Shown here one piece after another: positions 1,972 through 16,932 of a stretch of 32,000 bases of DNA. The stretch is from contig NC_020409.1 of the NCBI RefSeq assembly GCF_000341895.1, forward strand, positions 1,590,001 through 1,622,000, given 5' to 3'. Position 1 is the stretch's first letter, and each line of letters opens with the position of its first letter. Made by a program: the position numbers and the translations under genes. This stretch comes from Pseudodesulfovibrio piezophilus C1TLV30 (lineage in GTDB: Bacteria > Desulfobacterota > Desulfovibrionia > Desulfovibrionales > Desulfovibrionaceae). The notes beneath the pieces are model-generated. The model saw only the letters and a program-made list of their open reading frames with translations. It had not been told where the DNA came from and searched no databases.

Positions 1972-2796
1972 ATGTCCAAACGATATTCCCCATCCGACGA
2001 AAGATTTTAACGTTGGCGCAAGGAAGGTCGCGGTGCCGGCAGGCATGGCAACTATAAGCCTTGGTTGACTGTGTGGGATGTGCCTTCCCAAGGGCGTTCA
2101 CATCGAATCTTCGGACACAAAGTACGCCGAACGCACCACCTTTTCTCCGACCTAGAGCTTGCTGTCTTCCTCCCTTTGGAATGGCAGCAAGACGTAACCG
2201 ACATTCGGGAACAATTTCCGCTTCAACGAGAACTCACGATTGAAATCGCCGACCAATACGGCATTACACACCCTTCGGCCTCTGGCGTCCTTCAGTACAT
2301 GACTTCAGACTTTCTCGTCGACACATCACGGTCAGACAAAATGCGCGTGGCGCTACAGGCTAAGTACTCCGATGAGCTTCAAAAGCCCCGAATGATAGAG
2401 AAGCTGGAATTAGAACGCAGGTATTGGGAGCAGAAAGGCGTCCACTGGCATCTGGTGACTGAAAAGGAAATTTCTTCTGTCGCACTTGAAAACATAAAGT
2501 GGCTTTACCCAGCTCAACGTGACGAAATCGAGGATGCTGATCTGAAGCATCGAGCGGATTTTTACAGTCACCACTTTGCCGAAAACAAAGAGTCTACATT
2601 AATCAATCTCGCTAAATCTCTTGAAGTAGCCTACGACCTTGCTCCCGGAGAATCTTTACGAGAAATCAGACAGCTACTATCTCAAAGAGTCTTTTCATTC
2701 GATATCAATATTGCTTTTCGTAAGCTTGCACCCAGGGATTTAGTCGCAGCTGAAGCCGTGACCTTAGAGGAGATGCTTCATGTTCAGAATCAATGA
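1972..2796 (+). pseudogene. tnsA: tnsA (Tn7 TnsA endonuclease family) with an in-frame TAA at codon 13
   Basis: ATG at 1972 is preceded by AGGAG (1959-1963). Translation reads MSKRYSPSDERF*RWRKEGRGAGRHGNYKPWLTVWDVPSQGRSHRIFGHK..SDLELAVFLPLEW..IREQFPL..KLELERRYWEQKG. It is collinear with Tn7 TnsA (..RRIKEGRGQGHGKDYIPWLTVQEVPSSGRSHRIYSHK..SDLELAVFLSLEW..IREQFPL..LELERRYW). The TAA at 2008-2010 lies between the ATG and the conserved block. The ORF track only rescues a TTG start at 2065. Confidence 0.85.
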
Positions 2797-3269
2797 AGTG
2801 CTTAAGTATGAAGGCCGGTTGTTCCGAGTCCTCTCGTTGCTTGGTGAACAGTTGGTCTGGATTGACCTTGAAAGCCCTAAGCCCTTCCCTGCGCTCATTT
2901 TGAGAAATGATCTGATTCAATCAATTGAAGATGAAACCCTATTCCGGGCTGAAGACCCTCACTCCGAGCTTGCATTTAAAAATCCCAAACCAGGAAGTTC
3001 GGCACAAATCAAACGAGATACCAATTACGCATTTGTCCAGGAGACGCTTGATAAACTTGAGTACTTCGATCGCAAAGAATTAACTGCTCGCATCAATGAA
3101 GTTGTTTCGAGTGGCAAGGTGTCCAAGCCTCAATTGTACAAATTACTGAGGCGTTATTGGCAAAGGGGGCAAACGCCCAATGCCCTTCTTCCAGACTACA
3201 AACACTCTGGCGGCAAAGAAAAGAAACGCGTAGCGAACGGGAAAAAACTCGGGAGACCGCGCGAGTTTA
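2780..3269 (+). pseudogene. tnsB: tnsB N-terminal fragment (Tn7 TnsB transposase family), truncated by IS insertion
   Basis: MFRINEVL... and ...YKLLRRYWQRGQTPNALLPDYKHSGG match the Tn7 TnsB N-terminus (MWQINEV..., YKLLRRYWQRGQTPNALIPDYKNSG). The ATG at 2780 overlaps the tnsA stop (2794-2796). Similarity ends at ~3269, where the IS inverted repeat begins. No DDE core follows. Confidence 0.85.
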
Positions 3270-3332
3270 TGAGAAGTGGGTTCACTTTATCGGACCACTG
3301 AGCGGCGAATTTAAGGTGGACAGTTTTACGTG

Positions 3333-4082
3333 TTACGCCGCCTTGTGGGTCCATCCCAGAGGGGGTACCCCCTCTGGGATGGGACCGCTTTGATATATCT
3401 CCATCGGCTTGCGTCCGTCAAAGGTCTTATGAGGACGCCGATTATTGTAGAAGTTAAACCACCAGGCCAAGGCACTCCGCAGCTCACTTCCTGTCTCCAG
3501 TTCCCGCAAGTAGACACATTCGTATTTCAAAGACTTCCAGAGTCGTTCGATCATGACGTTATCCATCCAGCGTCCTCGGCCATCCATTGAAATGCGGATG
3601 CCAGCATCCCGCAGAGTCTTTGTGAATTCATAGCTGGTGAACTGGCTCCCCTGGTCTGTGTTGAATATCTCAGGTTCTCCATAACGGTTGATCGCATCCT
3701 CCAAAGCTACGACACAAAAGTCGGCCTCCATCGTATTCGACAAACGCCACGACAATACTGCCCGGCTATGCCAATCCATGATTGCCACGAGATACAAGAA
3801 GCCTCGTTTCATCGGAATGTAAGTAATGTCGGTACACCAAACTTGATTTGGCTTTGTGATCTTCATGTTCCGCAACAAATACGGATATATTTTGTGCTGT
3901 GGATGAGGATCACTCGTCCTCGGTTTTTGGTAAATCGCCATCAAGCCCATCTTGCGCATAAGTCGTCTCACACGACCACGGCCAACCAGATGCCCTTCAT
4001 CCCGCAGAATGTTGCGCATCTGGCGTGAGCCGAAAAATGGTAGCTCCATGAACAACTCGTCGATGCGTTTCATCAACTCCAA
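3333..4082 (-). CDS. IS3-family transposase OrfB (DDE/rve integrase core); probably made as an OrfAB fusion
   Basis: DDE-core signatures are [21 protein letters not shown] and [15 protein letters not shown]. The same frame stays open upstream of the listed TTG start (..[23 protein letters not shown]) and across the orfA stop. It is in the -1 frame relative to orfA. Confidence 0.85.
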
Positions 4083-4210
4083 GTTATACGATGATTCGCC
4101 AATCGGCTGATAATAGTATGTTGAGCGTTGCAGTTTGAGGATTCTGCATTGTCGCCGGACGCTGAGTTGTGGATGCTCTTTGTCGACGACTTCACGCCTT
4201 CGCTCGCAGC

Positions 4211-4522
4211 TCAGATTTTGGCGAAGGCTTGTTGCAAAAAATCCTTCTCGATCAGAAGTTGGCCGATCTTAGCGTGCAGATCCTTGATATGTGCATCGTC
4301 CATTTGCTGGCTCTTCTCTGCCTTGCCAGAAAATGACGCGACAATACCTTCTTTGGCTTGTCGTTTCCACGTGGATATCTGGTTGGTGTGAACTCCATAC
4401 TTGCTGGCCAGCTCGGAAAGTGTGTGCTCGCCAGACAAAGCGTCGAGGGCTACACGGGCTTTGAATTCAGCAGTAAATCTTCTTCTCTTCTTGGACATCG
4501 AAAAGCCTCCTTCGGCTATCAT
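4211..4522 (-). CDS. IS3-family transposase OrfA (HTH)
   Basis: MSKKRRRFTAEFKARVALDALSGEHTLSELASKYGVHTNQISTWKRQ is a typical IS3/IS911-type OrfA N-terminus, followed by a leucine-zipper-like tail. Confidence 0.85.
   Translation of the reverse strand: MIAEGGFSMSKKRRRFTAEFKARVALDALSGEHTLSELASKYGVHTNQISTWKRQAKEGIVASFSGKAEKSQQMDDAHIKDLHAKIGQLLIEKDFLQQAFAKI
4235..4241 (-). other. Candidate programmed -1 frameshift heptamer T TTT TTG in the orfA/orfB overlap
   Basis: On the minus strand orfA reads GAT TTT TTG. This fits the X XXY YYZ pattern. The -1 frame is open from here into orfB. Confidence 0.4.
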
Positions 4523-4570
4523 ATGTCCACCTTATACTGTGGTCCAGTTTCTTAGACCCACTTCTCTCAT

Positions 4571-4798
4571 ATAGTTAAAAGACATATGAAGGAGTTTTTG
4601 GGAAAAGGTATTTCTAAAAATGAAATTCCTGATTTTCTTCAACAAGCCTTAGCAAAGAATAATGTGATTGGTTTTCAGGGCAAAGGAAAAGGTAGACCTA
4701 TTTACGAGTTTGTCTATAAAGGTAAAAAATAGCGTATTGCGATTACTATTGGAGGTAATGGCTATATAGTTGGTGCTAACTTTAGAAGTAGTAGGTGA
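4571..4798 (+). pseudogene. 5'-deleted remnant of a toxin C-terminal domain (paralogue of the last ~75 codons of the 10301-11590 toxin) with an in-frame TAG
   Basis: Translation is IVKRHMKEFLGKGISKNEIPDFLQQALAKNNVIGFQGKGKGRPIYEFVYKGKK*RIAITIGGNGYIVGANFRSSR. The paralogue reads HILEEHKQDFWRKGISKDEIPDFLQQALEKNNVVGYQGQGSGRPIYELVYKGKRQRVAITVGNNGFVVGANPKGLK. The TAG at 4730-4732 aligns with CAG in the paralogue. The fragment starts directly at the IS boundary. Confidence 0.85.
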
Positions 4799-4803
4799 TT
4801 AAT

Positions 4804-5112
4804 ATGTTGGAAAGAATGAGACTTGCGTTGGAATATTATTGCTCACCCATTTGGATAATTGATGATGATGGGAGTTCCGACACTATAGCTGTTGAAGATA
4901 TGGATATAAGTGATTCTCTTAAGAAAGATATCATTACTTGGGATAATCTTTATCAGGCCACTTTTGATGCTGAATATCCTCCAGATTCTGGATTTTCTTC
5001 AAAGGAGGCCGATGATTTATTGAAAAAATCATTTAGACTAGAAGGAAAAGCATTGTTTTTGAGGCTTAAAGAAGAGTTAAAAGGTAAGTATATATTTGAA
5101 TATATGGCATGA
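4804..5112 (+). CDS. Putative immunity protein, paralogue of 11596-11913
   Basis: MLERMRLALEYYCSPIWIIDDDG...YPPDSGFSSKEADDLL..LEGKALFLRLKEEL is collinear with MIKRIRLALEYGCSPIWIIDEDG...YPPDSGFSSNEANVLL..LEGKELFLRLKEEL. It sits directly 3' of the toxin remnant. The ATG at 4804 is preferred over the GTG at 4795 because the TTAATATG context is shared with the paralogue. Confidence 0.75.
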   Translation: MLERMRLALEYYCSPIWIIDDDGSSDTIAVEDMDISDSLKKDIITWDNLYQATFDAEYPPDSGFSSKEADDLLKKSFRLEGKALFLRLKEELKGKYIFEYMA

Positions 5113-5267
5113 TTTCTTGTGTGATAAGAATTATCGCCTATCTTGTCTGGTGTGTAACGATGGTAAGACCATTAGTGAAGAGTGGCTTCTGTCTCGTTAT
5201 TTCTCAAGGGAGAGGGGGTATTATCAACTAATCTGCCAATCCCAAGTAAGTACTAGGCAAAGGACAT

Positions 5268-5639
5268 ATGATAAACGATACAACATTACTCCAATGGTTA
5301 AACTTACTGAATTTGTCTCCTGATTTTGTAATCAGACATGGTAATGAAAATGAAAGTTCAACAACAACAGCAATCCCTCTTGTTCCAAAGGATGACGGTG
5401 ATTACTGGATCGCTGGAGTAACCATACTTGCTAACGGTGATCGGCTAGACTCTGTTTTTATTGTTGATACGAATTCTGGAGGAGAGCTTTCCAGCGTGTA
5501 CTGGAAGATTGATAACAAATGGTGGGACTTTTTTGAACGCCCTGCCGTTTTCGCAGCATTGTCATTAAACGAGAAAGACGTATTTCCTTTTGATTGGCAG
5601 TTTTCAGTGCCTTTGGAAGAAGATATCTTTCATGACTAG
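5268..5639 (+). CDS. Hypothetical protein (candidate orphan immunity gene)
   Basis: 123-aa ORF in AT-rich DNA between two cassettes. AAGGA lies just upstream of the ATG. I recognise no family. Confidence 0.45.
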   Translation: MINDTTLLQWLNLLNLSPDFVIRHGNENESSTTTAIPLVPKDDGDYWIAGVTILANGDRLDSVFIVDTNSGGELSSVYWKIDNKWWDFFERPAVFAALSLNEKDVFPFDWQFSVPLEEDIFHD

Positions 5640-5730
5640 TACTTAGATTTAGAAAGCAACCGATTCATCAGACCGCTTGCTTTCTACCAATCTATTTAAT
5701 TTTTTTCATCGACCCTCTTACCACCTTAAA

Positions 5731-5765
5731 GACGGCCCGCCTCAGCGGGCCGTCTTTCGTTTTTT
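5731..5765 (+). terminator. Rho-independent terminator-like hairpin, first base of the repeated cassette unit (copy 1)
   Basis: GACGGCCCGC-CTCA-GCGGGCCGTC (10-bp GC stem) followed by TTTCGTTTTTT. Confidence 0.7.
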
Positions 5766-5839
5766 GACATAACCCCAACTCCTCGACCTCCACCACTGTA
5801 AACACCGTCATCAACGGCGGCGATCTCGGCGAAAATCTG

Positions 5840-7018
5840 GTGGGGAGCCTCCACTCTTCCGCAGTGGGCGTGCTTGGCAAGCACGCAGCCATGAAGATTG
5901 GTGAGGCGTATGACGGCGGCAATGGAGATATTGATTACGTCACTCATAAAATCGCTCATGCCGCTCTTGGCGGGACCATGGCTGCGGCAACAGGGGGAGA
6001 TATCGCCTCTGGTGCCATTGGCGGTGTCGTTGGGGAAGTTTTTGCTGAAGAATTTAGAAGTGAGTTGGAAGATGCCATACGAATGGGTGAAGTCGAACCA
6101 GATCAGGTTCAACGATGGGGCGATGCAGGTGTTGACATGTCGGCTCTTGTTGCAGGTTTGGCTGCGGCAGCTGCCGGTGGTGATGTAAACACTGCATCTG
6201 AAACTGGAGCAAATGCCGCCGAAAATAATGCCCTTTGTGGTGGATTCTGCATAGCTGCACTTGCTGCAGCTATATGGGTGTTAGCATCAGGAGAAGGAGA
6301 TCCTATAGAAGGCTTGGAAGAAATTGGCGATGGAACTGATCCGCTTAGTCAAGCCATTGCAACTGGCACTAAGGAAGCTGTGAATTTTTCAAGGAAGGAG
6401 CTCCCAAAAGAAACGGACGCAGTTATAGATGTTTTGGGGAAAGCTGGTGAAAATATTGATGCAATAGTCACTTATGTAGATGAAGCAACCGGTAAAGAAG
6501 TAAGTAGTCGTTGGAATAAGCTTCCTGAGCGAACTCGAAAGAGGCTCAAGGGTGGAGCAAAGGTTGTTTCAGTCTTGATTCCTGGTAAGGTTGTTACAAA
6601 ACTTATAAATAATAAAGCAATTAAGCCAATCGTTAAATTAGGGCAGAAACTGAAGGGGAAAAAATACACTCCTCTTGACAAAGGGCCTCTTAATACTGAA
6701 ATAGCAAAAACATTTAGAAGTGCAACTTATACTGAGAAAATTACAACCAAACCTACCACCTTGTATCGAGTGATAAGTGATAATGGAAATCCTGCTGGAG
6801 GGTATTGGACTCGTATTAAACCTAAAGGACCATTACAATCTGTAGTTGATTCAGCTCTTGATCAAAACTGGGGAAATACTGCCACGAGAGTTGTGAAAGC
6901 GGTTATTCCAAGAGGGACGACTATATACGAAGGCTTTGCTGCTTCACAACGCGGATTAGTTGGTGGTGGTAATCAAGTGTTCATAAAGTCTGTGAACCCC
7001 AAATGGATCACAAAGTAA
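5840..7018 (+). CDS. Orphan CdiA/FhaB-family toxin C-terminal cassette 1 (DUF637-like plus PT-VENN-like pre-toxin plus variable CT); no convincing start codon or RBS
   Basis: The frame is open from 5768, right after a stop. ..TVNTVINGGDLGENLVGSLHSSAVGVLGKHAAMKIGEAY..THKIAHAALGG..GGDIASGAIGGVVGEV..LVAGLAAAAAGGDVNTASETGANAAENNAL shows the pre-toxin pattern of two-partner-secretion exoproteins. The VENN-type motif AENN lies at 6218-6229 and is followed by a unique ~260-aa C-terminus. Confidence 0.75.
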   Translation: MGSLHSSAVGVLGKHAAMKIGEAYDGGNGDIDYVTHKIAHAALGGTMAAATGGDIASGAIGGVVGEVFAEEFRSELEDAIRMGEVEPDQVQRWGDAGVDMSALVAGLAAAAAGGDVNTASETGANAAENNALCGGFCIAALAAAIWVLASGEGDPIEGLEEIGDGTDPLSQAIATGTKEAVNFSRKELPKETDAVIDVLGKAGENIDAIVTYVDEATGKEVSSRWNKLPERTRKRLKGGAKVVSVLIPGKVVTKLINNKAIKPIVKLGQKLKGKKYTPLDKGPLNTEIAKTFRSATYTEKITTKPTTLYRVISDNGNPAGGYWTRIKPKGPLQSVVDSALDQNWGNTATRVVKAVIPRGTTIYEGFAASQRGLVGGGNQVFIKSVNPKWITK

Positions 7019-7029
7019 CTGAGGCTAAC

Positions 7030-7272
7030 ATGTGGGAAGAGATACATGGGTTTATTAGCCCAAGCGAATATAAACGTTTTTTGCAGTTCATTCATGATCA
7101 AGTTGTCCTGGGGCGTGTCGTAGAAATAGTTGTAGATCCAGATTACTGTGAAGGGATGATTTGTGGAGGAAGATGGTTTCAAGACCCTTCTTCGGGAGAG
7201 GTTTGGAGGCTTATAGAGCCTGACTTTCCGTTTAAAGGGTTATGGGAAAGAGTAAATTGTAGTGACTTGTAG
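7030..7272 (+). CDS. Putative immunity protein for cassette 1
   Basis: Small ORF directly 3' of the toxin. GAGG (7021-7024) lies 5 nt upstream of the ATG at 7030. The track start at 7003 overlaps the toxin end. It is followed by hairpin copy 2. Confidence 0.6.
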   Translation: MWEEIHGFISPSEYKRFLQFIHDQVVLGRVVEIVVDPDYCEGMICGGRWFQDPSSGEVWRLIEPDFPFKGLWERVNCSDL

Positions 7273-7288
7273 GTATAATATGATTGGC

Positions 7289-7321
7289 ACGGCCCGCTTC
7301 TGCGGGCCGTTTTTCGTTCTT
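7289..7321 (+). terminator. Terminator-like hairpin, cassette unit copy 2
   Basis: ACGGCCCGC-TTCT-GCGGGCCGT followed by TTTTCGTTCTT. Confidence 0.7.
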
Positions 7322-7395
7322 TGACATAACATACCTCCACCACCTCCGCCACTGTAAACACCGTCATCAACGGCGGCGATTTCGGCGACAATCTG

Positions 7396-8406
7396 GTGGG
7401 GAGCCTGCATAGTTCCGCAGTGGGCGTGCTCGGCAAGCACGCGGCTATGAAGATTGGTGAGGCGTATGACGGCGGCAATGGAGATATTGATTACGTCACT
7501 CATAAAATAGCGCATTTAGCTTTGGGAGGAGCTATTGCGGCAGCTAGTGGCGATGACATTGCTGCAGGTGCCATTGGTGGGATGATTGGGGAAATCACCG
7601 CCGAGGCATTCCTTACTGATCGTATCCAATCAGGCATGACCGAGGAAGATATTGATAAGCTTGAAGCTGTCGGCGTAGACTTTTCGAAGTTGGCGGCTGG
7701 ATTGGCGGCAGCTGTGGCAGGAGCCGACGTTGATACTGCCGCAGGAACAGCAGAGAACGCCGCTCAAAATAACGCTGTCGATACTTTCTTTGACGCACTC
7801 TTTGTTCTGGCGGATGCAGGGAAGATCGCTTGGGGTTGGTATACGGACGATGACGGACTTCTTCAAGAAGGTATCATTGACCTCACTGCTGATAGTGCAG
7901 CCCTTCTTATACCATGCGTTCCCGCAGGATCAACCAGAGTCGCTCGTATATTCCAGAAAGCAGCTAGTAAAACAGATGATGTTGTTGATGCAGCAAAAGC
8001 TATTGATAATGCAGGAGATGCTGCGAAAGTTGTCGATAATGTCGCTGATGCTGGTAAAATTGGCGAAAATGTATCAGGCGGTGTCAAACATAGTGACAAA
8101 TATGCTCATGTTGGTAAAAGGCTTGATGAGAATGCAGCAAGACAATTTGATAACAAAACCATTAAAACTGATGATGCTCTTGATTTAGCACAAGATTTTC
8201 TTGGCTCAGGGTATAAAGACATGGGTGGTGGACGATTTTTATCTAAAGATGGTACTCGACAAGTACGAATGGGAGATGCTGACATTACAGGTCAACATGC
8301 AGGAGGAAACCATATGAATTTTGAAATATTAACTCCTAACCCTAAAAAACTTGGTAAAATGATGATTAAGAAAAAAGACAATCTTCATATCTTTTTGAAG
8401 GATTAA
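7396..8406 (+). CDS. Orphan CdiA/FhaB-family toxin C-terminal cassette 2
   Basis: The frame is open from 7330, after a TAA. It has the same pre-toxin region, with AQNN at 7762-7773. The post-motif domain VDTFFDALFVLADAGKI..IPCVPAGSTRVARIFQKAASK is shared with cassette 3. The unique C-terminus is ..GRFLSKDGTRQVRMGDADITGQHAGGNHMNFEIL..NLHIFLKD. Confidence 0.75.
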   Translation: MGSLHSSAVGVLGKHAAMKIGEAYDGGNGDIDYVTHKIAHLALGGAIAAASGDDIAAGAIGGMIGEITAEAFLTDRIQSGMTEEDIDKLEAVGVDFSKLAAGLAAAVAGADVDTAAGTAENAAQNNAVDTFFDALFVLADAGKIAWGWYTDDDGLLQEGIIDLTADSAALLIPCVPAGSTRVARIFQKAASKTDDVVDAAKAIDNAGDAAKVVDNVADAGKIGENVSGGVKHSDKYAHVGKRLDENAARQFDNKTIKTDDALDLAQDFLGSGYKDMGGGRFLSKDGTRQVRMGDADITGQHAGGNHMNFEILTPNPKKLGKMMIKKKDNLHIFLKD

Positions 8407-8410
8407 ATTC

Positions 8411-8650
8411 ATGAAGTATACCCTTGACATATCAGATGATAATTTTTGGGAAGTTGGGGCCGAAATAGAAGTTCAAATTGGAGATGACTTTGAGGCAGTC
8501 ATCAAAGCTAATGCAAAAGGATTTATTTCCCTTGCGAGACTTTGCTTGCAGTTCTCTTTGGATGATGTTCGGGCGCATGACCATTTACATCTCGACGTAA
8601 ATACTGGCCTTGAAGAAGGTTCTACAGAATTAATTATTGAAAGAACTTAA
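8411..8650 (+). CDS. Putative immunity protein for cassette 2
   Basis: 79-aa ORF 4 nt after the toxin stop. AAGGA lies 8 nt upstream. ..ANAKGFISLARLCLQFS..HDHLHLD..LEEGSTELIIE is reminiscent of Imm32-type immunity proteins; this is from memory and unverified. Confidence 0.6.
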   Translation: MKYTLDISDDNFWEVGAEIEVQIGDDFEAVIKANAKGFISLARLCLQFSLDDVRAHDHLHLDVNTGLEEGSTELIIERT

Positions 8651-8677
8651 TACACAAATACCAGATGAGTAATTTGC

Positions 8678-8710
8678 ACGGCCCGCCTCAGCGGGCCGTT
8701 TTTCGTTCTT
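8678..8710 (+). terminator. Terminator-like hairpin, cassette unit copy 3
   Basis: ACGGCCCGC-CTCA-GCGGGCCGT followed by TTTTTCGTTCTT. Confidence 0.7.
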
Positions 8711-8784
8711 TGACATAACGTACCTCCACCACCTCGGCCACGGTAAACACCGTCATCAACGGCGGCGATTTTGGCGACAATCTG

Positions 8785-9690
8785 GTGGGGAGCCTCCACT
8801 CTTCCGCAGTGGGCGTGCTCGGCAAGCACGCGGCCATGAAGATTGGTGAGGCGTATGACGGCGGCAATGGGGATATTGATTACGTCACTCATAAAATAGC
8901 GCATTTAGCTTTGGGAGGAGCTATTGCGGCAGCTAGTGGCGATGACATTGCTGCAGGTGCCATTGGTGGGATGATTGGGGAAATCACCGCCGAGGCATTC
9001 CTTACTGATCGTATCCAATCAGGCATGACCGAGGAAGATATTGATAAGCTTGAAGCTGTCGGCGTAGACTTTTCGAAGTTGGCGGCTGGATTGGCGGCAG
9101 CTGTGGCAGGAGCCGACGTTGATACTGCCGCAGGAACAGCAGAGAACGCCGCTCAAAATAACGCTGTCGATACTTTCTTTGACGCACTTTTTGTTCTGGC
9201 GGATGCAGGGAAGATCACTTGGGGCTATATCATCGATGACGATGGGATGGTTAATGAAGGGTTGATTGATCTTAGTGCAGACAGTGCCGCTATGCTCATA
9301 CCATTTGTGCCAGCAGGAACAACTAGAATTGCGAGAATATTCCAAAAAGCTGCAAGTAAATCTGATGATGTTATTGATATCGCTAAGCGATCAGTTACTT
9401 ATTCAGAGAAGCAGTTAAAGCGTAAATTTAAACACGCTGGAGATTTTGGTATTGAAGGAAAAAATTACAATCCTTCAAAAGGTGAAAGATTTAGAAAAGC
9501 TATTGACGATCATGTCCGTAATACAGAAACTGTTGAAATAAAAGGAACCTATAGAGGTCAAGATGTGGTTCATTACGTTAACCCCAAAACAGGTAATAAT
9601 GTTATTAAAAAGCCGGATGGGGAGTTCATTAGTGGGTGGAAATTAAAACCTGACCAGCTAAAAAATGTTTTGACCAGAGGTAAACTTTAA
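8785..9690 (+). CDS. Orphan CdiA/FhaB-family toxin cassette 3 with a colicin D-like tRNase C-terminal domain
   Basis: The frame is open from 8719. AQNN lies at 9151-9162. The C-terminus is SEKQLKRKFKHAGDFGIEGKNYNPSKGERFRKAIDDHVRNTETVEIKGTYRGQDVVHYVNPKTGNNVIKKPDGEFISGWKLKPDQL. It resembles the colicin D catalytic domain (..KHAGDFGI..F..AI..H....T..KGTYR......NP.T.NVVI.K.NGEFLSGWK..). Confidence 0.8.
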   Translation: MGSLHSSAVGVLGKHAAMKIGEAYDGGNGDIDYVTHKIAHLALGGAIAAASGDDIAAGAIGGMIGEITAEAFLTDRIQSGMTEEDIDKLEAVGVDFSKLAAGLAAAVAGADVDTAAGTAENAAQNNAVDTFFDALFVLADAGKITWGYIIDDDGMVNEGLIDLSADSAAMLIPFVPAGTTRIARIFQKAASKSDDVIDIAKRSVTYSEKQLKRKFKHAGDFGIEGKNYNPSKGERFRKAIDDHVRNTETVEIKGTYRGQDVVHYVNPKTGNNVIKKPDGEFISGWKLKPDQLKNVLTRGKL

Positions 9691-9963
9691 ATGGATACTA
9701 CGAATATATATATTAATTTAATAGATGATTTCTTACATTATAGAATTACGGCTTCAGAGTTCGAAATGTCATTTATCAGACAACGGCGTCAAGATCTTAA
9801 TGATAAAAACAATTATAATAATGCATTAGAAGAATTGTTCTTTGATATTGATGCATTCTGCTCTGATCCAGAGTTGATAGAAGAAGAAGATTTAACGGAA
9901 GAGGAGCTGCGGAGAAGCTGCATGCGAACTCTTTCTGATTTAAAGTCAGACGGAAAAGGATAG
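9691..9963 (+). CDS. Putative immunity protein for cassette 3 (colicin D immunity-like)
   Basis: The ATG immediately follows the toxin TAA. GAGGT lies 9 nt upstream. The N-terminus ..LIDDFLHYRITASEFEMSFIRQRRQ resembles ImmD (..[22 protein letters not shown]..) as I recall it. The C-terminal half is acidic. Confidence 0.65.
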   Translation: MDTTNIYINLIDDFLHYRITASEFEMSFIRQRRQDLNDKNNYNNALEELFFDIDAFCSDPELIEEEDLTEEELRRSCMRTLSDLKSDGKG

Positions 9964-10194
9964 TCGCAAGGTCGCGAAAAGATATAAAAATAATACAGAA
10001 TGCTTAGAAGCCATGAAAAGGATTCTTAATGAGAAAAAAATGGGAAGAAAAAATATATTGATTTGATCAAAGTGTATGAATTGATGGGAGATAGAGCGAA
10101 TGCTCTTGATAAAAAAGATATGAATATGCCTTAAAGGGTAGTGGTTATGAAGAGAAGAATTGTGATTAATTTGAAATGATTTGTGCGTTCGTAG

Positions 10195-10227
10195 CGGCCC
10201 GCTTCGGCGGGCCGTTTTTCGTTCTTT
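10195..10227 (+). terminator. Terminator-like hairpin, cassette unit copy 4
   Basis: CGGCCCGC-TTCG-GCGGGCCG followed by TTTTTCGTTCTTT. Confidence 0.7.
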
Positions 10228-10300
10228 GACATAACATACCTCCACCACCTCCGCCACTGTAAACACCGTCATCAACGGCGGCGATTTCGGCGACAATCTG

Positions 10301-11590
10301 GTGGGGAGCCTGCATAGTTCCGCAGTGGGCGTGCTCGGCAAGCACGCGGCTATGAAGATTGGTGAGGCGTACCATAAAGGCGATCTGAACTATGTGACGC
10401 ATAAAATCGCCCATGCCGCCCTCGGCGGAGCCATCGCAGCAGGAACTGGCGGCGATGTCGCATCCGGTGTCATTGGCGGGGCTGTGGGTGAGATCACAGG
10501 TGAATTTCTTTCCAAAGAAATCGAAGATGCTCTGAGAGCAGGGGATATAGACCCCACCAAAGTTCATCAGTGGATGGATGCCGGTGTCGACGTTTCAAAG
10601 CTTGCAGCTGGTCTTGTTGCGGCCGCTGCTGGCGGCGATGTCAACACTGCGGCCGATGTGGCAGATAATGCTGCTAAGAACAATGCCTTCTGGATCGCCA
10701 TACCAATTCTTTTGGAAGTGGCAGACAAGATCCTCATGGCTGCCGATGCCGTGGAATTTGGCGAAGCCGTCATTACAGGGGATGTCGAAAAACAAAACGA
10801 GATCATGCTGGGTTTCCTGATCGGCATGGGTATCGAAACCACTGTCGGCAGCATACTCCCCGGCAGCTATGTCGCGCTCAAGGGAGCCATCAAGGCTGGC
10901 AAGCTCGACGTGATCATCGACCTGCTTCCAGACAAAGCAGTCAAGTGGATTATCGAACATTCAGACGATGCCATCGGCGAGCTTCGAAGTACGCTTCATT
11001 CAAAATTCCCGGACCTGAAAGCTGATCTGGACAACTTTAATTTCGATGGCCTTAAAAATAGCGACGAGCTGAATAAAATTCTCGCCAAGAAAAAGGGCGA
11101 TACGGATATTCCGAATTCCGGTGGCAGCTCCTCTGGTGGGAGTTCTTCTGGAGGTTCTCACGGGAATTCTTCTGGTGGAAAGCCGGATGGCTCGACAAGT
11201 GGGGCTGTCGATATTGCAACACAGGTTCATGCTGAACATCTTGAAGAAATGAAAAGCTTAGGAGTTAAGTATACTCATGAGGATGTACTTTTCACCCACA
11301 AAATGCCTGATGATAAGATTGCATTCCTTGAGAAAGGAAGCTCAAATGGGGGGCTCGCTCATATACTTGAAGAACACAAGCAGGACTTTTGGAGAAAAGG
11401 TATTTCTAAAGACGAAATTCCAGATTTCCTTCAACAAGCCCTAGAGAAAAACAACGTGGTTGGCTATCAGGGACAAGGAAGCGGTAGACCTATTTACGAA
11501 CTTGTTTATAAAGGTAAAAGACAGCGTGTTGCAATAACTGTTGGCAATAACGGTTTTGTCGTTGGCGCTAACCCTAAAGGGCTTAAATAA
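10301..11590 (+). CDS. Orphan CdiA/FhaB-family toxin C-terminal cassette 4
   Basis: Same 5' region as the other cassettes, with AKNN at 10673-10684. A hydrophobic post-motif segment is followed by a Gly/Ser linker (NSGGSSSGGSSSGGSHGNSSGGKPDGSTSG) and a ~130-aa C-terminal domain (..GGLAHILEEHKQDF..GRPIYELVYKGKRQRVAITVGNNGFVVGANP). I cannot assign that domain to a family. Confidence 0.75.
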   Translation: MGSLHSSAVGVLGKHAAMKIGEAYHKGDLNYVTHKIAHAALGGAIAAGTGGDVASGVIGGAVGEITGEFLSKEIEDALRAGDIDPTKVHQWMDAGVDVSKLAAGLVAAAAGGDVNTAADVADNAAKNNAFWIAIPILLEVADKILMAADAVEFGEAVITGDVEKQNEIMLGFLIGMGIETTVGSILPGSYVALKGAIKAGKLDVIIDLLPDKAVKWIIEHSDDAIGELRSTLHSKFPDLKADLDNFNFDGLKNSDELNKILAKKKGDTDIPNSGGSSSGGSSSGGSHGNSSGGKPDGSTSGAVDIATQVHAEHLEEMKSLGVKYTHEDVLFTHKMPDDKIAFLEKGSSNGGLAHILEEHKQDFWRKGISKDEIPDFLQQALEKNNVVGYQGQGSGRPIYELVYKGKRQRVAITVGNNGFVVGANPKGLK

Positions 11591-11595
11591 TTAAT

Positions 11596-11913
11596 ATGAT
11601 AAAAAGAATAAGACTTGCATTGGAATATGGTTGCTCGCCTATTTGGATAATTGATGAAGATGGAGATTTGGACACTGTGGCTATTGAGAATATGAATATA
11701 AGTGATTCTTTAAAAAAAGATATTACCATTTGGAACGATGTTTACCATGTTACTTTCAATGAGAACTACCCACCGGATTCTGGTTTTTCCTCAAACGAGG
11801 CTAATGTGCTATTACAAGAGGCATTCAAGCTAGAAGGGAAAGAATTATTTTTGAGACTTAAAGAAGAATTAAACGGAAGATATATCGTTGAATCAAAATT
11901 CGGTATTAAATAG
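11596..11913 (+). CDS. Putative immunity protein for cassette 4
   Basis: 105-aa ORF 5 nt after the toxin stop. It is a paralogue of 4804-5112. Confidence 0.7.
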   Translation: MIKRIRLALEYGCSPIWIIDEDGDLDTVAIENMNISDSLKKDITIWNDVYHVTFNENYPPDSGFSSNEANVLLQEAFKLEGKELFLRLKEELNGRYIVESKFGIK

Positions 11914-11951
11914 AAATCATGAAGTCTAATCAGGTCACCCCATGATTACAG

Positions 11952-12069
11952 AAAACGGCCTGCTTTAGTGGGCCTTTTTTTGTTCTTTGATATAGCTCCT
12001 CACTATCTACTCCACACCTCAGCCGGGTGAATATCGCCATCAAAGGCGATGATTTGGGAGAAAATCTGG
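11952..12069 (+). pseudogene. Stub of a fifth cassette (degenerate hairpin plus diverged 5' coding stretch), cut by an IS fragment
   Basis: A weak GGCC...GGCC hairpin with a T-run is followed by TTGTTCTTTGATATAG and ..VNIAIKGDDLGENL, compared with ..VNTVINGGDLGENLVGSL in the other cassettes. Similarity stops at ~12069. Confidence 0.65.
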
Positions 12070-12465
12070 CGAGATGATCCGGGATCTGATGCTCGAATGC
12101 GTGGAGAAACGATTCGGCGCGAGCCGTGCGCCGCACAAGGTGCAATGGCTGTCGGACAACGGCTCCTGCTACACGGCAAAGGAGACCGTTGAGTTCGCCG
12201 CCTGGCTGGGGCTGGAAAGTTGTTTTACGCCGGTACGCAGCCCGGAGAGCAACGGCATGGCCGAGTCATTTGTGAAAACCTTCAAACGCGATTATGCCTA
12301 CGTGCATGACCGGCCCGATGCGAGGACGCTCTTCGCTCAATTGGCCGACTGGTTCGAGGATTACAACGAAAGGCATCCCCACAAGGGACTGCGGATGCAA
12401 TCTCCCCGCGAATTCATCCGCTCATTGGCAACCGCCGAGTGTCCGATTTAGCGAGGGCAACTCCA
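12070..12465 (+). mobile_element. 3' fragment (~400 bp) of an IS3-family, IS2-group element
   Basis: It encodes only the C-terminal part of OrfB. The end, read as reverse complement, is TGGAGTTGCCCTCGCTAAATCGGACA, which resembles the IS2 right inverted repeat TGGATTTGCCCCTATATTTCCAGACA. The 5' two-thirds of the IS are missing. Confidence 0.7.
12074..12451 (+). pseudogene. Truncated IS2-like transposase OrfB (C-terminal fragment)
   Basis: ..[70 protein letters not shown] is collinear with IS2 InsD (..[68 protein letters not shown]). Confidence 0.8.
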
Positions 12466-13581
12466 ATACCATCTCTCTCGAAGTGTACACTTATAACGAC
12501 CAGGAATCCCCTTCAACTCTCCAAACGCTAAATATTCCAACAGCCCTTCAGTAAAACTATCAGCATCTACACCATTTAAGTCCAATAAATAACGAGGCTT
12601 CTCGTTCGCTACTAGCTATTCGTGATTTACGTCTGTATATCTAACTGAACCATTCACAAACATGCCTTTTTGAATGACAGGCTTGACATATCCACCTAGA
12701 TCGTACTGCTCAACAGTACCCTGTGATACAATAAAAAAATTATTCGCCGCAGTTACTATCCCAGCTACAGAAGTGCAGTAAGATGAAATTGGTCTGCAGG
12801 CCTCTGTCAATCGTTTAACCAATCCAAGTTCTTCAGAACTAAGGATAAACGATGTCCATTTGGCAGTTTCAGCACCTTCATGTTTAGTTAATTGAACTTC
12901 AGCTGAACTAAGCTCCTCAATAGAGTCTACTTCTGTAAAATAAAATCCCTCTTCTGTTGCCTCCTTATGAGCAATCAGAATAACTGTGTCTTGTTCTAAA
13001 GTCTCAAAGGCAAGTTTCCTAAATGAGATAATCTCTACGCGATTAAAACTCTGAAGCAGATACGATCTGATTTCTTGAGCGTACTTTACTTGCAACAACT
13101 CTGTTGGAATCACGAAGGCCATCACGCCATGAGGGGTCAACAACTGGGCAGCTTTCACAACAAAAGCTGTCCAGATATTTGATATCTCTTTATTGACCAA
13201 CCCTGCTTCTACATGGATTTTCTTACAAGCAGCAGCCTGATCCGACGCCAAATTCGTCTTACTTATGTAAGGGGGATTCCCGAGGATGATATCGTATGAG
13301 TGGGGAGCATCCCATGCGAGAAAATCTTCATTAAAAAGCTTAGAAGATGGCATGCTCTGATGCGCAATGGAAAGGGCATCGCAATCAATCTCAACCCCAT
13401 CGACTGCCAATTAATTACGGCTCTTCAAACCCGCTAGTGCTCGAAAAAAGACACCGTCGCCGCAACTAGGCTCAAGCACTCGAACTTGATCACCTGGGAA
13501 TGTCAGGCCCACCACCCTTTGCGATATCCACCTGGCGAGACTTGCTGGAGTATAGTATTTTCCGCTTTTCTTATTTGTCAT
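12466..13581 (-). pseudogene. Gamma-class N6-adenine DNA methyltransferase (Eco57I/TaqI-like) with two in-frame stops and a 3' truncation
   Basis: From the ATG at 13581 it reads MTNKKSGKYYTPASLARWI..VLEPSCGDGVFF (motifs X and I), then SRN, TAA (13413-13411) and LAVDGVEID..ILGNPPYIS (motif IV). After ..VNHE a TAG (12618-12616) is followed by 50 more open in-frame codons: LVANEKPRYLLDL..GELKGIPGRYKCTLRERWY. These run into the IS2-like end at 12465. No restriction endonuclease gene is adjacent. Confidence 0.75.
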
Positions 13582-13755
13582 CACATATCAACCTATTACA
13601 GCAAAAAAAGTGGAGTGTAACACCAAACTGTTCACAAAGGTTCTGTTTTGAAGTAGCAAGTCGCCCCATTCAAGTCTAGGACTCAGAAATACCTGAACTA
13701 ATACACAACTTATTGCATCGAGACGATATTACTAAGGCAACCTTAAGACGAACCT

Positions 13756-13903
13756 GTTAACGACTTTATTATTTCGATTTTATCATTTGTTTGCACCCTC
13801 CTGAGGGAGTATTAACAACTAAGATGCTAATTCATCTTCTTTTTAATGGGCGGATTCAGAGTTTTTGGGGCAATGCTGTAAACAACTTTATTGTTCGCCC
13901 ACA
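13756..13903 (-). repeat. Tn7-like left end with three dispersed TnsB-type repeats
   Basis: GTTAACGACTTTATTATT (13756-13773), ATTAACAACTAAGATGC (13811-13827) and GTAAACAACTTTATTGTTCGCCCACA (13878-13903) are inverted copies of the right-end motif. The sites are spaced out, as in the Tn7 left end. Confidence 0.7.
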
Positions 13904-13908
13904 TTTTT

Positions 13909-14028
13909 TGTGGGTGAGTAATAAAGTTTTTAAGTGAGTAATAAAAGTTCTTTAGCAAGTAATAAAGTTGAGAACTGAAACCGCTTCTGGTATTCTTGAA
14001 AATAGAAATAATCAGGAGCGGTTTTATC
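13909..14028 (+). repeat. Fossil right end of a second, related Tn7-like element (terminus, three repeats and tnsA leader only)
   Basis: TGTGGGTGAGTAATAAAGTT..GAGTAATAAAAGTT..AAGTAATAAAGTTG is followed by AAACCGCT..CAGGAGCGGTTTTATC. This is collinear and in direct orientation with 1874-1975. The position of the tnsA ATG reads ATC (14026-14028), and no tnsA sequence follows. Confidence 0.65.
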
Positions 14029-14048
14029 TCTCTGTAGACAATCGTTTT

Positions 14049-15386: not shown

Positions 15387-15914
15387 TCAAATATATAGAC
15401 GCTTGAAGCTGGCCCCTTTCTCTGGCAAATCTCTATAGTGAAGATATTCAGCCGCAGCTTTTTTCATCGATCGAATCATGAGTGGCACCAATCCTGCCCG
15501 AGTGACTTTGCGAGTCCAGAAACGCACTTCGCATGTCTCATCAGTCTTAAAAACCATTGTCAGTTCCAGCCCAGTGCCCCGCTCCACCACCACGGGTGCG
15601 AACTGATCCTGCATGTTCACGGTCACATCCATGGCCGGGAATATATCCTGATTCTTGATGGCCATGAAATTGATATTTCTCATCTCTTTTGGTGAAAGCC
15701 TGAGCGCTTTCACACTCACAGCACCCTTCACCGAAACACTTTCAATGATCTGCGTATCATATGTTGGTTGAGAGGAAGGAAAGGTCAGCCCCACCAGATT
15801 GGTCTGAAAGGCAACAACGGCAGCAACTGCAATCAGCAACATGACTGCGATTACGAGTGTCCGCTTCGTATTATTTGTCTGCTTTTTCGCCAAAGTGCTC
15901 TGCTCCCATGCCAC
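15387..15914 (-). CDS. Membrane-anchored hypothetical protein, paralogue of 16044-16532
   Basis: It has an N-terminal transmembrane helix (TLVIAVMLLIAVAAVVAF). The C-terminus CEVRFWTRKVTRAGLVPLMIRSMKKAAAEY..SFKRLYI is shared with its neighbour. GTG start per the ORF track. Confidence 0.6.
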   Translation of the reverse strand: MAWEQSTLAKKQTNNTKRTLVIAVMLLIAVAAVVAFQTNLVGLTFPSSQPTYDTQIIESVSVKGAVSVKALRLSPKEMRNINFMAIKNQDIFPAMDVTVNMQDQFAPVVVERGTGLELTMVFKTDETCEVRFWTRKVTRAGLVPLMIRSMKKAAAEYLHYRDLPEKGASFKRLYI

Positions 15915-16043: not shown

Positions 16044-16532
16044 CTATATATAGAGACATTTAAAACTTTGTTGCACATCAGGATACTTTTTGAACTGCTC
16101 AAATTCCTTGGCGGCCTTGTCCATATATAGGACCATTTGCGGCACCAGATCGCTCCTTGGAACCTTTCGACTCCAAGAACGAACCTCACAGTTTCCATCC
16201 GTCTCCAGGACCATGGCCATGACAAGGACCGACTTCCCATCAAGTTGCCCACTTCCTGACTTTCTATCGAGGAAGACGGCAACTTGTGTAAAAGTATTTC
16301 TATGCGATTTGACAGTCCTGTTGATCTTCTTGACTTCATTTTCTGTCAGTCCAAGTTCGGAGACCTTGATCGTGCCCTTAACCGCAACCACCCCTGTCAG
16401 GGTGTCACTCATGGCGCTGCGCGCCCCCCAAAGCCCTGCCTTAAATGCAACCAGTCCTGCCATACATAAAAAGAGCGCAACAATGGCTATTACCTTATAG
16501 CCAGTCCTGGGAACAGCTTTTTCAACAACCAT
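16044..16532 (-). CDS. Membrane-anchored hypothetical protein, paralogue of 15387-15914
   Basis: CEVRSWSRKVPRSDLVPQMVLYMDKAAKEF..SFKCLYI, with transmembrane helix YKVIAIVALFLCMAGLVAF. The start is placed at the ATG at 16532, with GGGAG 9 nt upstream. ATG 16541 is an alternative. The track start at 16679 adds an implausible extension. Confidence 0.6.
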   Translation of the reverse strand: MVVEKAVPRTGYKVIAIVALFLCMAGLVAFKAGLWGARSAMSDTLTGVVAVKGTIKVSELGLTENEVKKINRTVKSHRNTFTQVAVFLDRKSGSGQLDGKSVLVMAMVLETDGNCEVRSWSRKVPRSDLVPQMVLYMDKAAKEFEQFKKYPDVQQSFKCLYI

Positions 16533-16932
16533 CTTCCACATCTCCCGAAGGGCTAAGAATATCAGTAAAAAATTAAGGATGTCTCTATAGAGATTCAGAG
16601 GTAAATCATTTGTGGCGACTTGGCAACGCCACCTTTGGGCGAATTTTAAGCCCACCATTTTTAACCATTCACAATACAAAGAAAAATTTTACAGAATACA
16701 ATACTTTATATTTTTTTACAAGTATCAACTCCATTATCATAATTTGATACTTACAGAGACTCTCTCACCTCTCCTCAATATTCCCTGTGTTTCTCTATAC
16801 AAAACAAAGAGCGATTCAAGCCTCAGCTATGTGTTTTATTCTTCTCGAATCATGCAAGTTTCACAGCTGGATTCTTCCCGTTTTTACTCTGTATTGAGTG
16901 TTATGCAACAATGTTGTAGGAGATGTCGGTAT

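Follow-up and report, generated by a model that had tools for sequence, protein, structure and literature searches.

Orphan cdiA-CT/cdiI modules, which are displaced ends of the toxin gene of contact-dependent growth inhibition (CDI) with their immunity genes, are known from enterobacteria (Escherichia coli EC93 and EC869, Yersinia pseudotuberculosis and Dickeya), where they have been tested experimentally. They are start-less and retain homology in the pre-toxin region; the orphan toxins work once grafted onto CdiA, the orphan immunity genes are expressed, and interruptions by insertion sequences (ISs) occur (Poole et al. 2011, PMC3150448; Ruhe et al. 2016, PMC4927057). Start-less orphan arrays lying amid IS and transposase genes on mobile islands have likewise been published, together with models that treat them as a 'silent reservoir' or an 'immunity collection' (PMC3150448, PMC4927057). 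The present analysis concerns a tandem array of this kind at 4571–12069 of a 32,000-nt stretch (the window) of the genome of Pseudodesulfovibrio piezophilus C1TLV30 (NC_020409.1, positions 1,590,001 to 1,622,000). Its assignment to the orphan cdiA-CT/cdiI family is, judged from sequence and profile matches, close to certain. The preferred reading, held at a probability of about 0.75, is that of a silent array of CDI toxin tips, whose immunity genes may still be expressed, which would be remodelled by recombination at a common homology arm, and which was severed by ISs and stranded in a dead Tn7-like element.

Layout of the cassettes and identity of their toxins

Each unit corresponds to the 3' end of a cdiA gene and is formed by the last ~80 residues of the DUF637 region, a PT-VENN domain and a two-part C-terminal region (an entry-type domain common to some cassettes, then a distinct toxin), followed by an immunity gene. 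CdiA C-terminal regions typically consist of a toxin preceded by a delivery or entry domain. The features of the array are listed below; the cassette frames are given as stop-to-stop open frames on the + strand.

4569–4790, + strand: cassette 0, 3' remnant of a cassette-4-like toxin, with a TAG at 4730–4732 (nucleotide similarity)
4804–5112, + strand: cassette 0 immunity gene, intact, paralogue of 11596–11913
5268–5639, + strand: 123-aa open reading frame (ORF) between cassettes 0 and 1, without a Pfam or NCBIfam match
5728–5767, + strand: cassette 1 junction element, formed by hairpin, T-run and TTTTTTGACAT (hairpin scan)
5768–7015, + strand: cassette 1, 416 codons, start-less DUF637-C/PT-VENN (AAENNA), entry-type domain and unclassified toxin
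7003–7272, + strand: presumed cassette 1 immunity gene, 89 aa, identified by position only; overlaps the toxin stop
7289–7329, + strand: cassette 2 hairpin/junction element (hairpin scan)
7330–8403, + strand: cassette 2, 358 codons, start-less pre-toxin (AAQNNA), shared entry domain and unclassified toxin
8411–8650, + strand: cassette 2 immunity gene, Imm32 (PF15566, E 2e-12)
8678–8718, + strand: cassette 3 hairpin/junction element (hairpin scan)
8719–9687, + strand: cassette 3, 323 codons, start-less pre-toxin (AAQNNA), cassette-2-type entry domain and Colicin D-type tRNase domain
9691–9963, + strand: cassette 3 immunity gene, colicin-D immunity family (PF09204, E 2e-14)
10193–10234, + strand: cassette 4 hairpin/junction element (hairpin scan)
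10235–11587, + strand: cassette 4, 451 codons, start-less pre-toxin (AAKNNA), entry domain and CdiA-CT-like toxin
11596–11913, + strand: cassette 4 immunity gene (PDB 7m5f_A 'CdiI', E 1e-6)
11957–12052, + strand: stub, diverged hairpin/junction (11957–11990) and ~30 codons of a further cassette, ended by an IS fragment (alignment)

The family assignment is carried by the pre-toxin region. A profile search for PT-VENN (PF04829) and DUF637 (PF04830), set beforehand as a test, placed both families above their gathering cut-offs in all four cassettes: PF04830 was matched over profile positions ~90–168 of 168 at 49–54 bits (cut-off 26.6), and PF04829 at 22.5–23.6 bits (cut-off 20.3). The four frames begin with a nearly identical peptide, ..TVNTVINGGD(L/F)G(E/D)NLVGSLHSSAVGVLGKHAAMKIGEAY.., and at the DNA level their 5' regions form a repeat family of four copies of 300 nt with 71–96% identity. 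The pre-toxin ends in the boundary motifs AAENNA, AAQNNA, AAQNNA and AAKNNA in cassettes 1–4, with NA(A)xNN invariant, and similarity between cassettes drops beyond the A(E/Q/K)NN motif, which by its sequence reads as a variant spelling of VENN. Small ORFs with their own ATG start lie 0–9 nt from each toxin stop. Terminator-type hairpins stand ahead of the frames at 5728, 7289, 8678 and 10193, with a diverged one at 11957; the hairpin pattern gives eight matches where 0.01 would be expected, all of them confined to the array. The conserved parts have 54–57% GC and the toxin and immunity parts 33–44%, the toxin-coding parts of the four open frames falling at 35–44%, as compared with 51% in the neighbouring chromosome. 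No Rfam family is matched within the window. The original prediction, which was made from the DNA alone, had described four complete units of one layout (5731–7272, 7289–8650, 8678–9963 and 10195–11913, each opening with a hairpin), a decayed copy (4571–5112) and a stub (11952–12069), a VENN-type boundary followed by an unrelated C-terminal domain and a small ORF, AT-rich variable parts and an orphan cdiA-CT/cdiI organization; all of this was borne out, the last by Pfam and PDB matches that pass their thresholds.

The cassettes differ in their toxins. The C-terminus of cassette 3 matches PF11429 (Colicin_D, E 6e-25), and with the gene downstream this cassette forms a Colicin D/colicin-D-immunity pair. 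Over its last 221 residues the cassette 3 toxin frame agrees at 100% identity with WP_407635867.1 of P. piezophilus, the cluster of which includes CCH48764.1 of strain C1TLV30. The toxin of cassette 4 matches PDB 7m5f_C ('Toxin CdiA', E 5e-31), and the toxin–immunity pair thereby corresponds, chain by chain, to 7M5F, a CdiA-CT/CdiI complex of solved structure. The decayed copy at 4571–5112 retains the last ~55 codons of a cassette-4-like toxin and the intact immunity gene; it is 78% identical in nucleotides to 11355–11654, and its 5' side is interrupted by an IS. Cassette 1 aligns over 279 aa, at 48% identity, with residues 1476–1748 of a CdiA (1908 aa) of Desulfovibrio caledoniensis, and the alignment stops where the toxin proper begins. 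The protein of cassette 2 is 100% identical to the database protein P0001. Single-sequence AlphaFold2 models of the toxin domains of cassettes 1 and 2 reached a predicted local distance difference test score (pLDDT) of 43, too poor for use. Cassettes 2 and 3 have one domain after the NN motif in common, which is also found in several relatives, and the corresponding domain of cassettes 4 and 0 also occurs in orphan cassettes of Pseudodesulfovibrio sp. zrk46 that carry different toxins.

Two details of the array stand apart from this layout. The 123-aa ORF at 5268–5639, which is kept in two related metagenome contigs (L002 and L037), is possibly an extra or stand-alone immunity gene. The spacer between the cassette 3 immunity gene and the next hairpin (9964–10192) measures 229 nt with 31% GC; spacers elsewhere measure 16–43 nt.

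Probable silence, selection and turnover of cassettes

The toxin frames open directly after the stop codon that follows the terminator. Start codon context, signal peptide and two-partner secretion (TPS) domain are all absent from the toxin fragments, and no Shine-Dalgarno sequence precedes the sole early in-frame GTG, while several immunity genes have one; the absence of a translation start had been correctly predicted. The toxin fragments would thus be silent, and the immunity genes, if still expressed, would shield the cell from neighbours armed with the same toxins. It is hardly credible, as an alternative, that translation begins inside the cassettes and makes them intracellular toxin–antitoxin addiction modules by which the island is stabilized. 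NCBI annotation does call internal ATG starts in some cassettes (221-aa and 132-aa 'colicin D domain-containing protein'), and cdi genes can stabilize mobile elements (PMC4927057); as described, however, that stabilization requires cell-to-cell delivery by a full CdiA, and E. coli EC93 makes orphan immunity protein but not orphan toxin (PMC3150448). In the array itself the internal methionine is not conserved between cassettes and a terminator lies ahead of each one, and the lack of a ribosome-binding sequence before the early GTG likewise speaks against such translation.

Substitution patterns separate the parts of a cassette. The immunity genes of cassettes 0 and 4 are both intact and share 66% amino acid identity, with a ratio of non-synonymous to synonymous substitution rates (dN/dS) of 0.18; that of cassette 0 has remained intact beside a truncated, stop-carrying toxin, which fits selection on immunity. 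In the pre-toxin beyond the first 42 codons, comparisons among cassettes 1, 2/3 and 4 show saturated synonymous sites (proportion of synonymous differences, pS, 0.71–0.85) with dN of only ~0.27–0.29, which indicates that these regions diverged as parts of working proteins. Within the first 42 codons dS is 0–0.22, and cassettes 2 and 4 are identical; the sharp step in dS at this point indicates a homogenized homology arm. The hairpin and the first ~126 coding nucleotides, near-identical across cassettes, could serve as this arm: recombination there would delete, insert or swap cassettes, and could load a cassette onto a full-length cdiA, if one is present in the cell or is gained by gene transfer.

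These values bear on the possibility of a decaying fossil, left over from a CDI locus that has been lost and of no benefit through either toxin or immunity. Truncation and a premature stop in cassette 0 would fit such a fossil, as would the stub and, in the surroundings described below, a methylase pseudogene, a truncated tnsB and IS fragments, which indicate that the island is degrading. None of the entries in the supplementary tables of the P. piezophilus genome paper reads hemagglutinin, filamentous, exoprotein, COG3210 or COG2831, a weak hint that no CdiA is left, since these tables list subsets of genes. Yet the four frames of 323–451 codons have stayed open despite the low GC content of their toxin parts, the immunity paralogues are under purifying selection, and natural variants at 97–99% identity keep their frames open, so that a mere fossil is considered unlikely.

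The natural variants come from three metagenome/SRA contigs (L002, L037 and L038) that are 97–100% identical to parts of the window. The cassette order is c0'-c1-c2-c3-c4 in the window, c0'-c1-c4 in L037 (JGI metagenome 3300009849, 99% identical) and c0-c2-c4, with c0 intact and no IS, in L002 (JGI 3300009848, 97–99% identity). L038 holds cassette 4, the stub, the IS fragment, the methylase and the Tn7 left end, all unchanged with respect to the window. The variants differ by entire cassettes and the breakpoints between them fall in the conserved region, which indicates that cassettes are gained and lost as whole units, with breaks in the conserved 5' region.

At the 5' edge of every cassette of the array stands a junction element in which a GC-rich hairpin is followed by a T-run and then by G(C/T)TCTTTGA, with CAT as the usual next three letters. 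Cassettes of at least five other Desulfovibrionaceae genomes open with this element too, among them those of zrk46, another Pseudodesulfovibrio, D. caledoniensis and a Desulfocurvus metagenome-assembled genome. Its positions in five of the related loci are as follows.

L001: 6448–6488, 11250–11290, 15021–15055
L006: 9230–9265, 11405–11440, 13365–13405
L008: 4060–4092, 6920–6952
L009: 12520–12557
L010: 9725–9757

One position of the hairpin stem shows a compensatory change (GGCCCGC/GCGGGCC vs GGCCCGG/CCGGGCC). Past the element, cdiA coding resumes at about residues 1185–1280 of the zrk46 CdiA in several relatives and at about residue 1440 here; at the array ends the element is present only up to TTTGA. 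The junction element may be an operon terminator kept with each displaced module. That it is instead a specific crossover or circle-junction site, the cassettes being discrete mobile units of integron-like CDI toxin/immunity arrays, is very doubtful; if this were true, an orphan-only array in a Tn7-like element would be a transferable store of cassettes and immunity for which no linked cdiBA is needed. Several other identities were tried and rejected: a –35 box at the TTGACA in the junction, as no copy has a –10 element after it; an integron attC site, as the core GTTRRRY is unmatched; and a Neisseria-type DNA uptake sequence or a dif/Xer site, to which there is no resemblance.

The Tn7-like element, its insertion sequences and the missing secretion genes

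The array is physically inside a Tn7-like element, as had been predicted, because the ends of the element at 1874 and 13903 bracket it. The features on either side of the cassettes are listed below.

142–1869, + strand: glmS-like gene, isomerase/SIS half only (PF01380 SIS), attachment-site flank of the Tn7-like element
1874–1921, + strand: Tn7-like right end, TGTG terminus, two direct 17-nt TnsB-type repeats at 1885–1901 and 1905–1921
2065–2796, + strand: tnsA, intact (PF08722 and PF08721)
2780–3268, + strand: tnsB 5' fragment, 163 codons, frame running into the IS
3270–4568, – strand: IS3-family IS, orfA 4211–4522 and orfB 3333–4082 (HTH_Tnp_1 and rve, Pfam)
12053–12448, + strand: 3' fragment of a different IS3-family transposase gene (PF13683 and PF00665, partial)
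12616–13584, – strand: Eco57I-type N6-adenine methylase pseudogene, split and truncated (PF07669, PF02384)
13756–13903, – strand: Tn7-like left end, inverted TnsB-type repeats at 13756–13772 and 13878–13894

The right end opens with TGTGTAGCG... and the left end closes with ...CGCCCACA; a 17-nt repeat occurs twice per end, in opposite orientation between the ends, which amounts to four matches where 0.07 would be expected. The candidate 5-bp target-site duplication, GTTTT (1869–1873) against TTTTT (13904–13908), agrees at four of five positions, in a T-run that leaves the boundary ambiguous. The right end begins 5 bp past the stop codon of the glmS-like gene. Against NF001484 and TIGR01135 this gene covers positions ~180–580 with scores below the cut-offs, and may be a glmS paralogue or a truncated copy; the 141 nt upstream of it are too short for a glutaminase domain. 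By tblastn the tnsB fragment has 45–51% identity to the N-termini of DDE/Mu-type transposase genes that adjoin tnsA (257 plasmids), and what remains has no catalytic domain. The ORFs of at least 100 aa between 1874 and 13903 are all accounted for, and none of them is tnsC or tnsD/tniQ. The Tn7-like element is defunct, with tnsB cut at codon 163 and tnsC and tnsD absent. The Eco57I-type methylase, in two ORFs, looks like decayed restriction–modification cargo of the element.

Both edges of the array are IS junctions. The IS at 3270–4568 has inverted repeats at 3271–3298 and 4539–4566 but no target-site duplication at its junctions, and lies directly between the truncated tnsB and the truncated cassette 0; at the opposite edge, the stub is cut off by the 3' fragment of the second IS3-family transposase gene. 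L037 has the same IS and the same IS/cassette 0 junction as the window; to the left of the IS (1–1855), however, it carries a ParB-like gene and small phage-like ORFs and no tnsB. This different left flank indicates that the junction of tnsB', IS and cassette 0' in the window is the product of secondary IS-mediated recombination or deletion, and not the original boundary of the cargo. The 3' end of the IS transposase gene holds a perfect 32-nt palindrome (3351–3382, CCATCCCAGAGGGGGT/ACCCCCTCTGGGATGG). A composite transposon formed by the two flanking ISs was rejected, since they are different IS3-family members and one is merely a fragment.

The secretion genes of a CDI system are missing here, again as predicted: searched by tblastn with the CdiA and CdiB of a relative, the 32-kb window shows neither a TPS domain nor a CdiA body nor CdiB. 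Within the window the array does not lie downstream of cdiB-cdiA-cdiI, whereas arrays of relatives do (L001, L003–L006 and L009). In Pseudodesulfovibrio sp. zrk46 cdiB (POTRA/ShlB) comes first, then cdiA and its small immunity gene, and after these come four orphan cassettes that have immunity genes too; an IS200-type transposase also occurs there. The 1834-aa CdiA of zrk46 has TPS and DUF637 domains, and the pre-toxin of the array aligns with its C-terminus. A scan of relatives, with one genome per species, gave 34 loci with the pre-toxin, of which at least 24 have a CdiA body containing or preceding it, 12 of these also with a TPS domain and CdiB. Wherever the flank of a related locus is long enough, the pre-toxin is part of a complete cdiB-cdiA or comes after one. 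Ordinary chromosomal genes lie upstream of cdiB in the closest relatives. Neither tnsA nor tnsB was found in the flanks of the 34 loci, which is weak evidence because the flanks are short, and a tblastn search of plasmids with the pre-toxin gave one Agrobacterium match with no link to Tn7.

The original prediction saw in this arrangement a site-specific transposon that serves as the vehicle of a silent toxin/immunity library; this part did not hold. A Tn7-like transposon would in that case have taken the array as cargo and spread a silent library or immunity island independently of cdiBA. Such a vehicle is quite unlikely, for its transposition genes are destroyed or missing (tnsB truncated, no tnsC or tnsD/tniQ), the two edges of its supposed cargo are IS junctions that truncate cassettes, L037 has other sequence left of the IS, the relatives have ordinary cdiBAI with orphans and, in their short flanks, no tnsA or tnsB, and no second example was found. 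What favours it is the position of the array between matched ends at a glmS-like site, the same right-hand side in an independent metagenome contig (L038), and the conflict-related cargo that Tn7-like elements are known to carry (Benler et al. 2021, PMC8649781). A single example, and a decayed one, is too little to show that the element acts as a vehicle.

The lack of a nearby cdiBA is best explained by IS-mediated rearrangement, and not by a purpose-built transposon library. IS-mediated deletion or recombination would have removed the part upstream of the array, comprising the remaining Tn7-like machinery and plausibly a cdiBA locus, and would have left an orphan-only array in a defunct Tn7-like element at a glmS-like site. 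The severing by ISs is well supported by the junctions and by L037, while what was lost can be named only tentatively. Several points weigh against the preferred reading of a silent, severed array as a whole. The toxins of cassettes 1 and 2 have no match in Pfam, NCBIfam or PDB (phmmer), and the immunity gene of cassette 1 (7003–7272) matches no Pfam or NCBIfam family. L002, the sole contig with an intact cassette 0, ends inside that cassette, and the former presence of cdiBA upstream of the array is plausible rather than observed. To these are added the internal ATG starts called by NCBI, so that some toxins may be translated internally at a low level.

Two further observations concern the neighbourhood of the element. 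A second, solitary Tn7-like right end (13909–14040) begins 5 nt past the left end of the first element and reads TGTGGGTGAG; it has three GAGTAATAAAGTT-type repeats, unlike those of the first element, and after them the hairpin-like internal stretch of the first right end recurs. As no tns genes follow, this second end seems to be what is left of an earlier tandem insertion at this site. Farther on, two ORFs on the – strand (15387–15914 and 16044–16679) have C-terminal halves that are alike (…EVR.W.RKV.R..LVP.M…FK.LYI), predicted membrane segments at their N-termini and no Pfam match.

Comparison with known systems

The tpsC and mafB-CT/mafI modules of Neisseria meningitidis resemble the P. 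piezophilus array in being silent toxin cassettes that lack their 5' part and are each paired with an immunity gene, and the conserved 5' stretch of the tpsC and mafB-CT cassettes could recombine with the expressed gene. Unlike the P. piezophilus array, the Neisseria cassettes adjoin the expressed tpsA or mafB, and Maf has a different N-terminal domain and secretion route. Cassettes of Rhs, Maf or type VI secretion system effectors were considered for the present locus and rejected, because its pre-toxin is of the DUF637/PT-VENN type, which is specific to TPS filaments. The orphan rhs-CT/rhsI modules of Salmonella and Dickeya follow the same logic of displaced tips with immunity genes, reactivated by recombination with the main gene (PMC3150448, PMC4927057); their carrier is a YD-repeat Rhs protein and not a TPS/FhaB-type filament, and the P. 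piezophilus array has no Rhs or PAAR features.

As to the surrounding element, the Tn7-like elements with conflict-related cargo described by Benler et al. 2021 (PMC8649781) have tnsA and tnsB at the right end, where the P. piezophilus element has an intact tnsA and the first 163 codons of tnsB, and share with it TGT...ACA ends, repeated TnsB sites, and restriction–modification and mobile-element cargo; their glmS-type neighbour has its counterpart here in the glmS-like gene, which scores below the glmS cut-offs. The P. piezophilus element differs from them in being non-autonomous and decayed. Secretion, polymorphic toxins and CDI toxin/immunity cargo are not mentioned in the main text of that paper, and a search of the literature found no paper that links Tn7-like cargo with CDI modules. 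The original prediction had also held the arrangement to be undescribed. This does not stand for start-less orphan arrays, which are published (PMC3150448, PMC4927057), and would stand only for the Tn7-like context, which appears to be unreported.

With this locus, deep-sea sulfate reducers join the bacteria known to have orphan CDI toxin/immunity arrays. The P. piezophilus genome paper has a 'genomic island of unknown function', DESPIv2_11521–11533, which it lists, including a 'colicin-D domain protein', among genes without a homologue in sulfate reducers, and the array accounts for this island. The three near-identical variants that differ by whole cassettes, and the ISs that strand the array from secretion genes, make it a clean natural example of both processes, and the hairpin/TTTGA junction, conserved from species to species, gives a concrete clue to the assembly of such arrays. 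If the genome truly has no cdiBA, the array would be a test case for orphan modules retained purely for immunity.

The closest comparison set remains the orphan cdiA-CT/cdiI modules of enterobacteria. In both groups the cassettes are start-less 3' fragments of cdiA that keep the pre-toxin and a VENN-type motif, carry unrelated toxins, and have an immunity gene with its own start directly downstream; in both they form tandem arrays in one orientation on mobile islands, with IS-interrupted cassettes and cassette swaps between strains. The P. piezophilus array differs in having no adjacent cdiB or full-length cdiA, at least within 32 kb, in its A(E/Q/K)NN motif in place of VENN, in its host, a sulfate-reducing member of the Desulfovibrionaceae, in its location in a Tn7-like remnant instead of a tRNA-linked island, and in the conserved terminator/GYTCTTTGA junction of each cassette, which is common to several Desulfovibrionaceae species. 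Already published, then, are the class, the silence, the association with ISs and mobile islands, and the models of reservoir or immunity; new are the host group, the orphan-only state within 32 kb, the location in a Tn7-like remnant and the conserved junction element.

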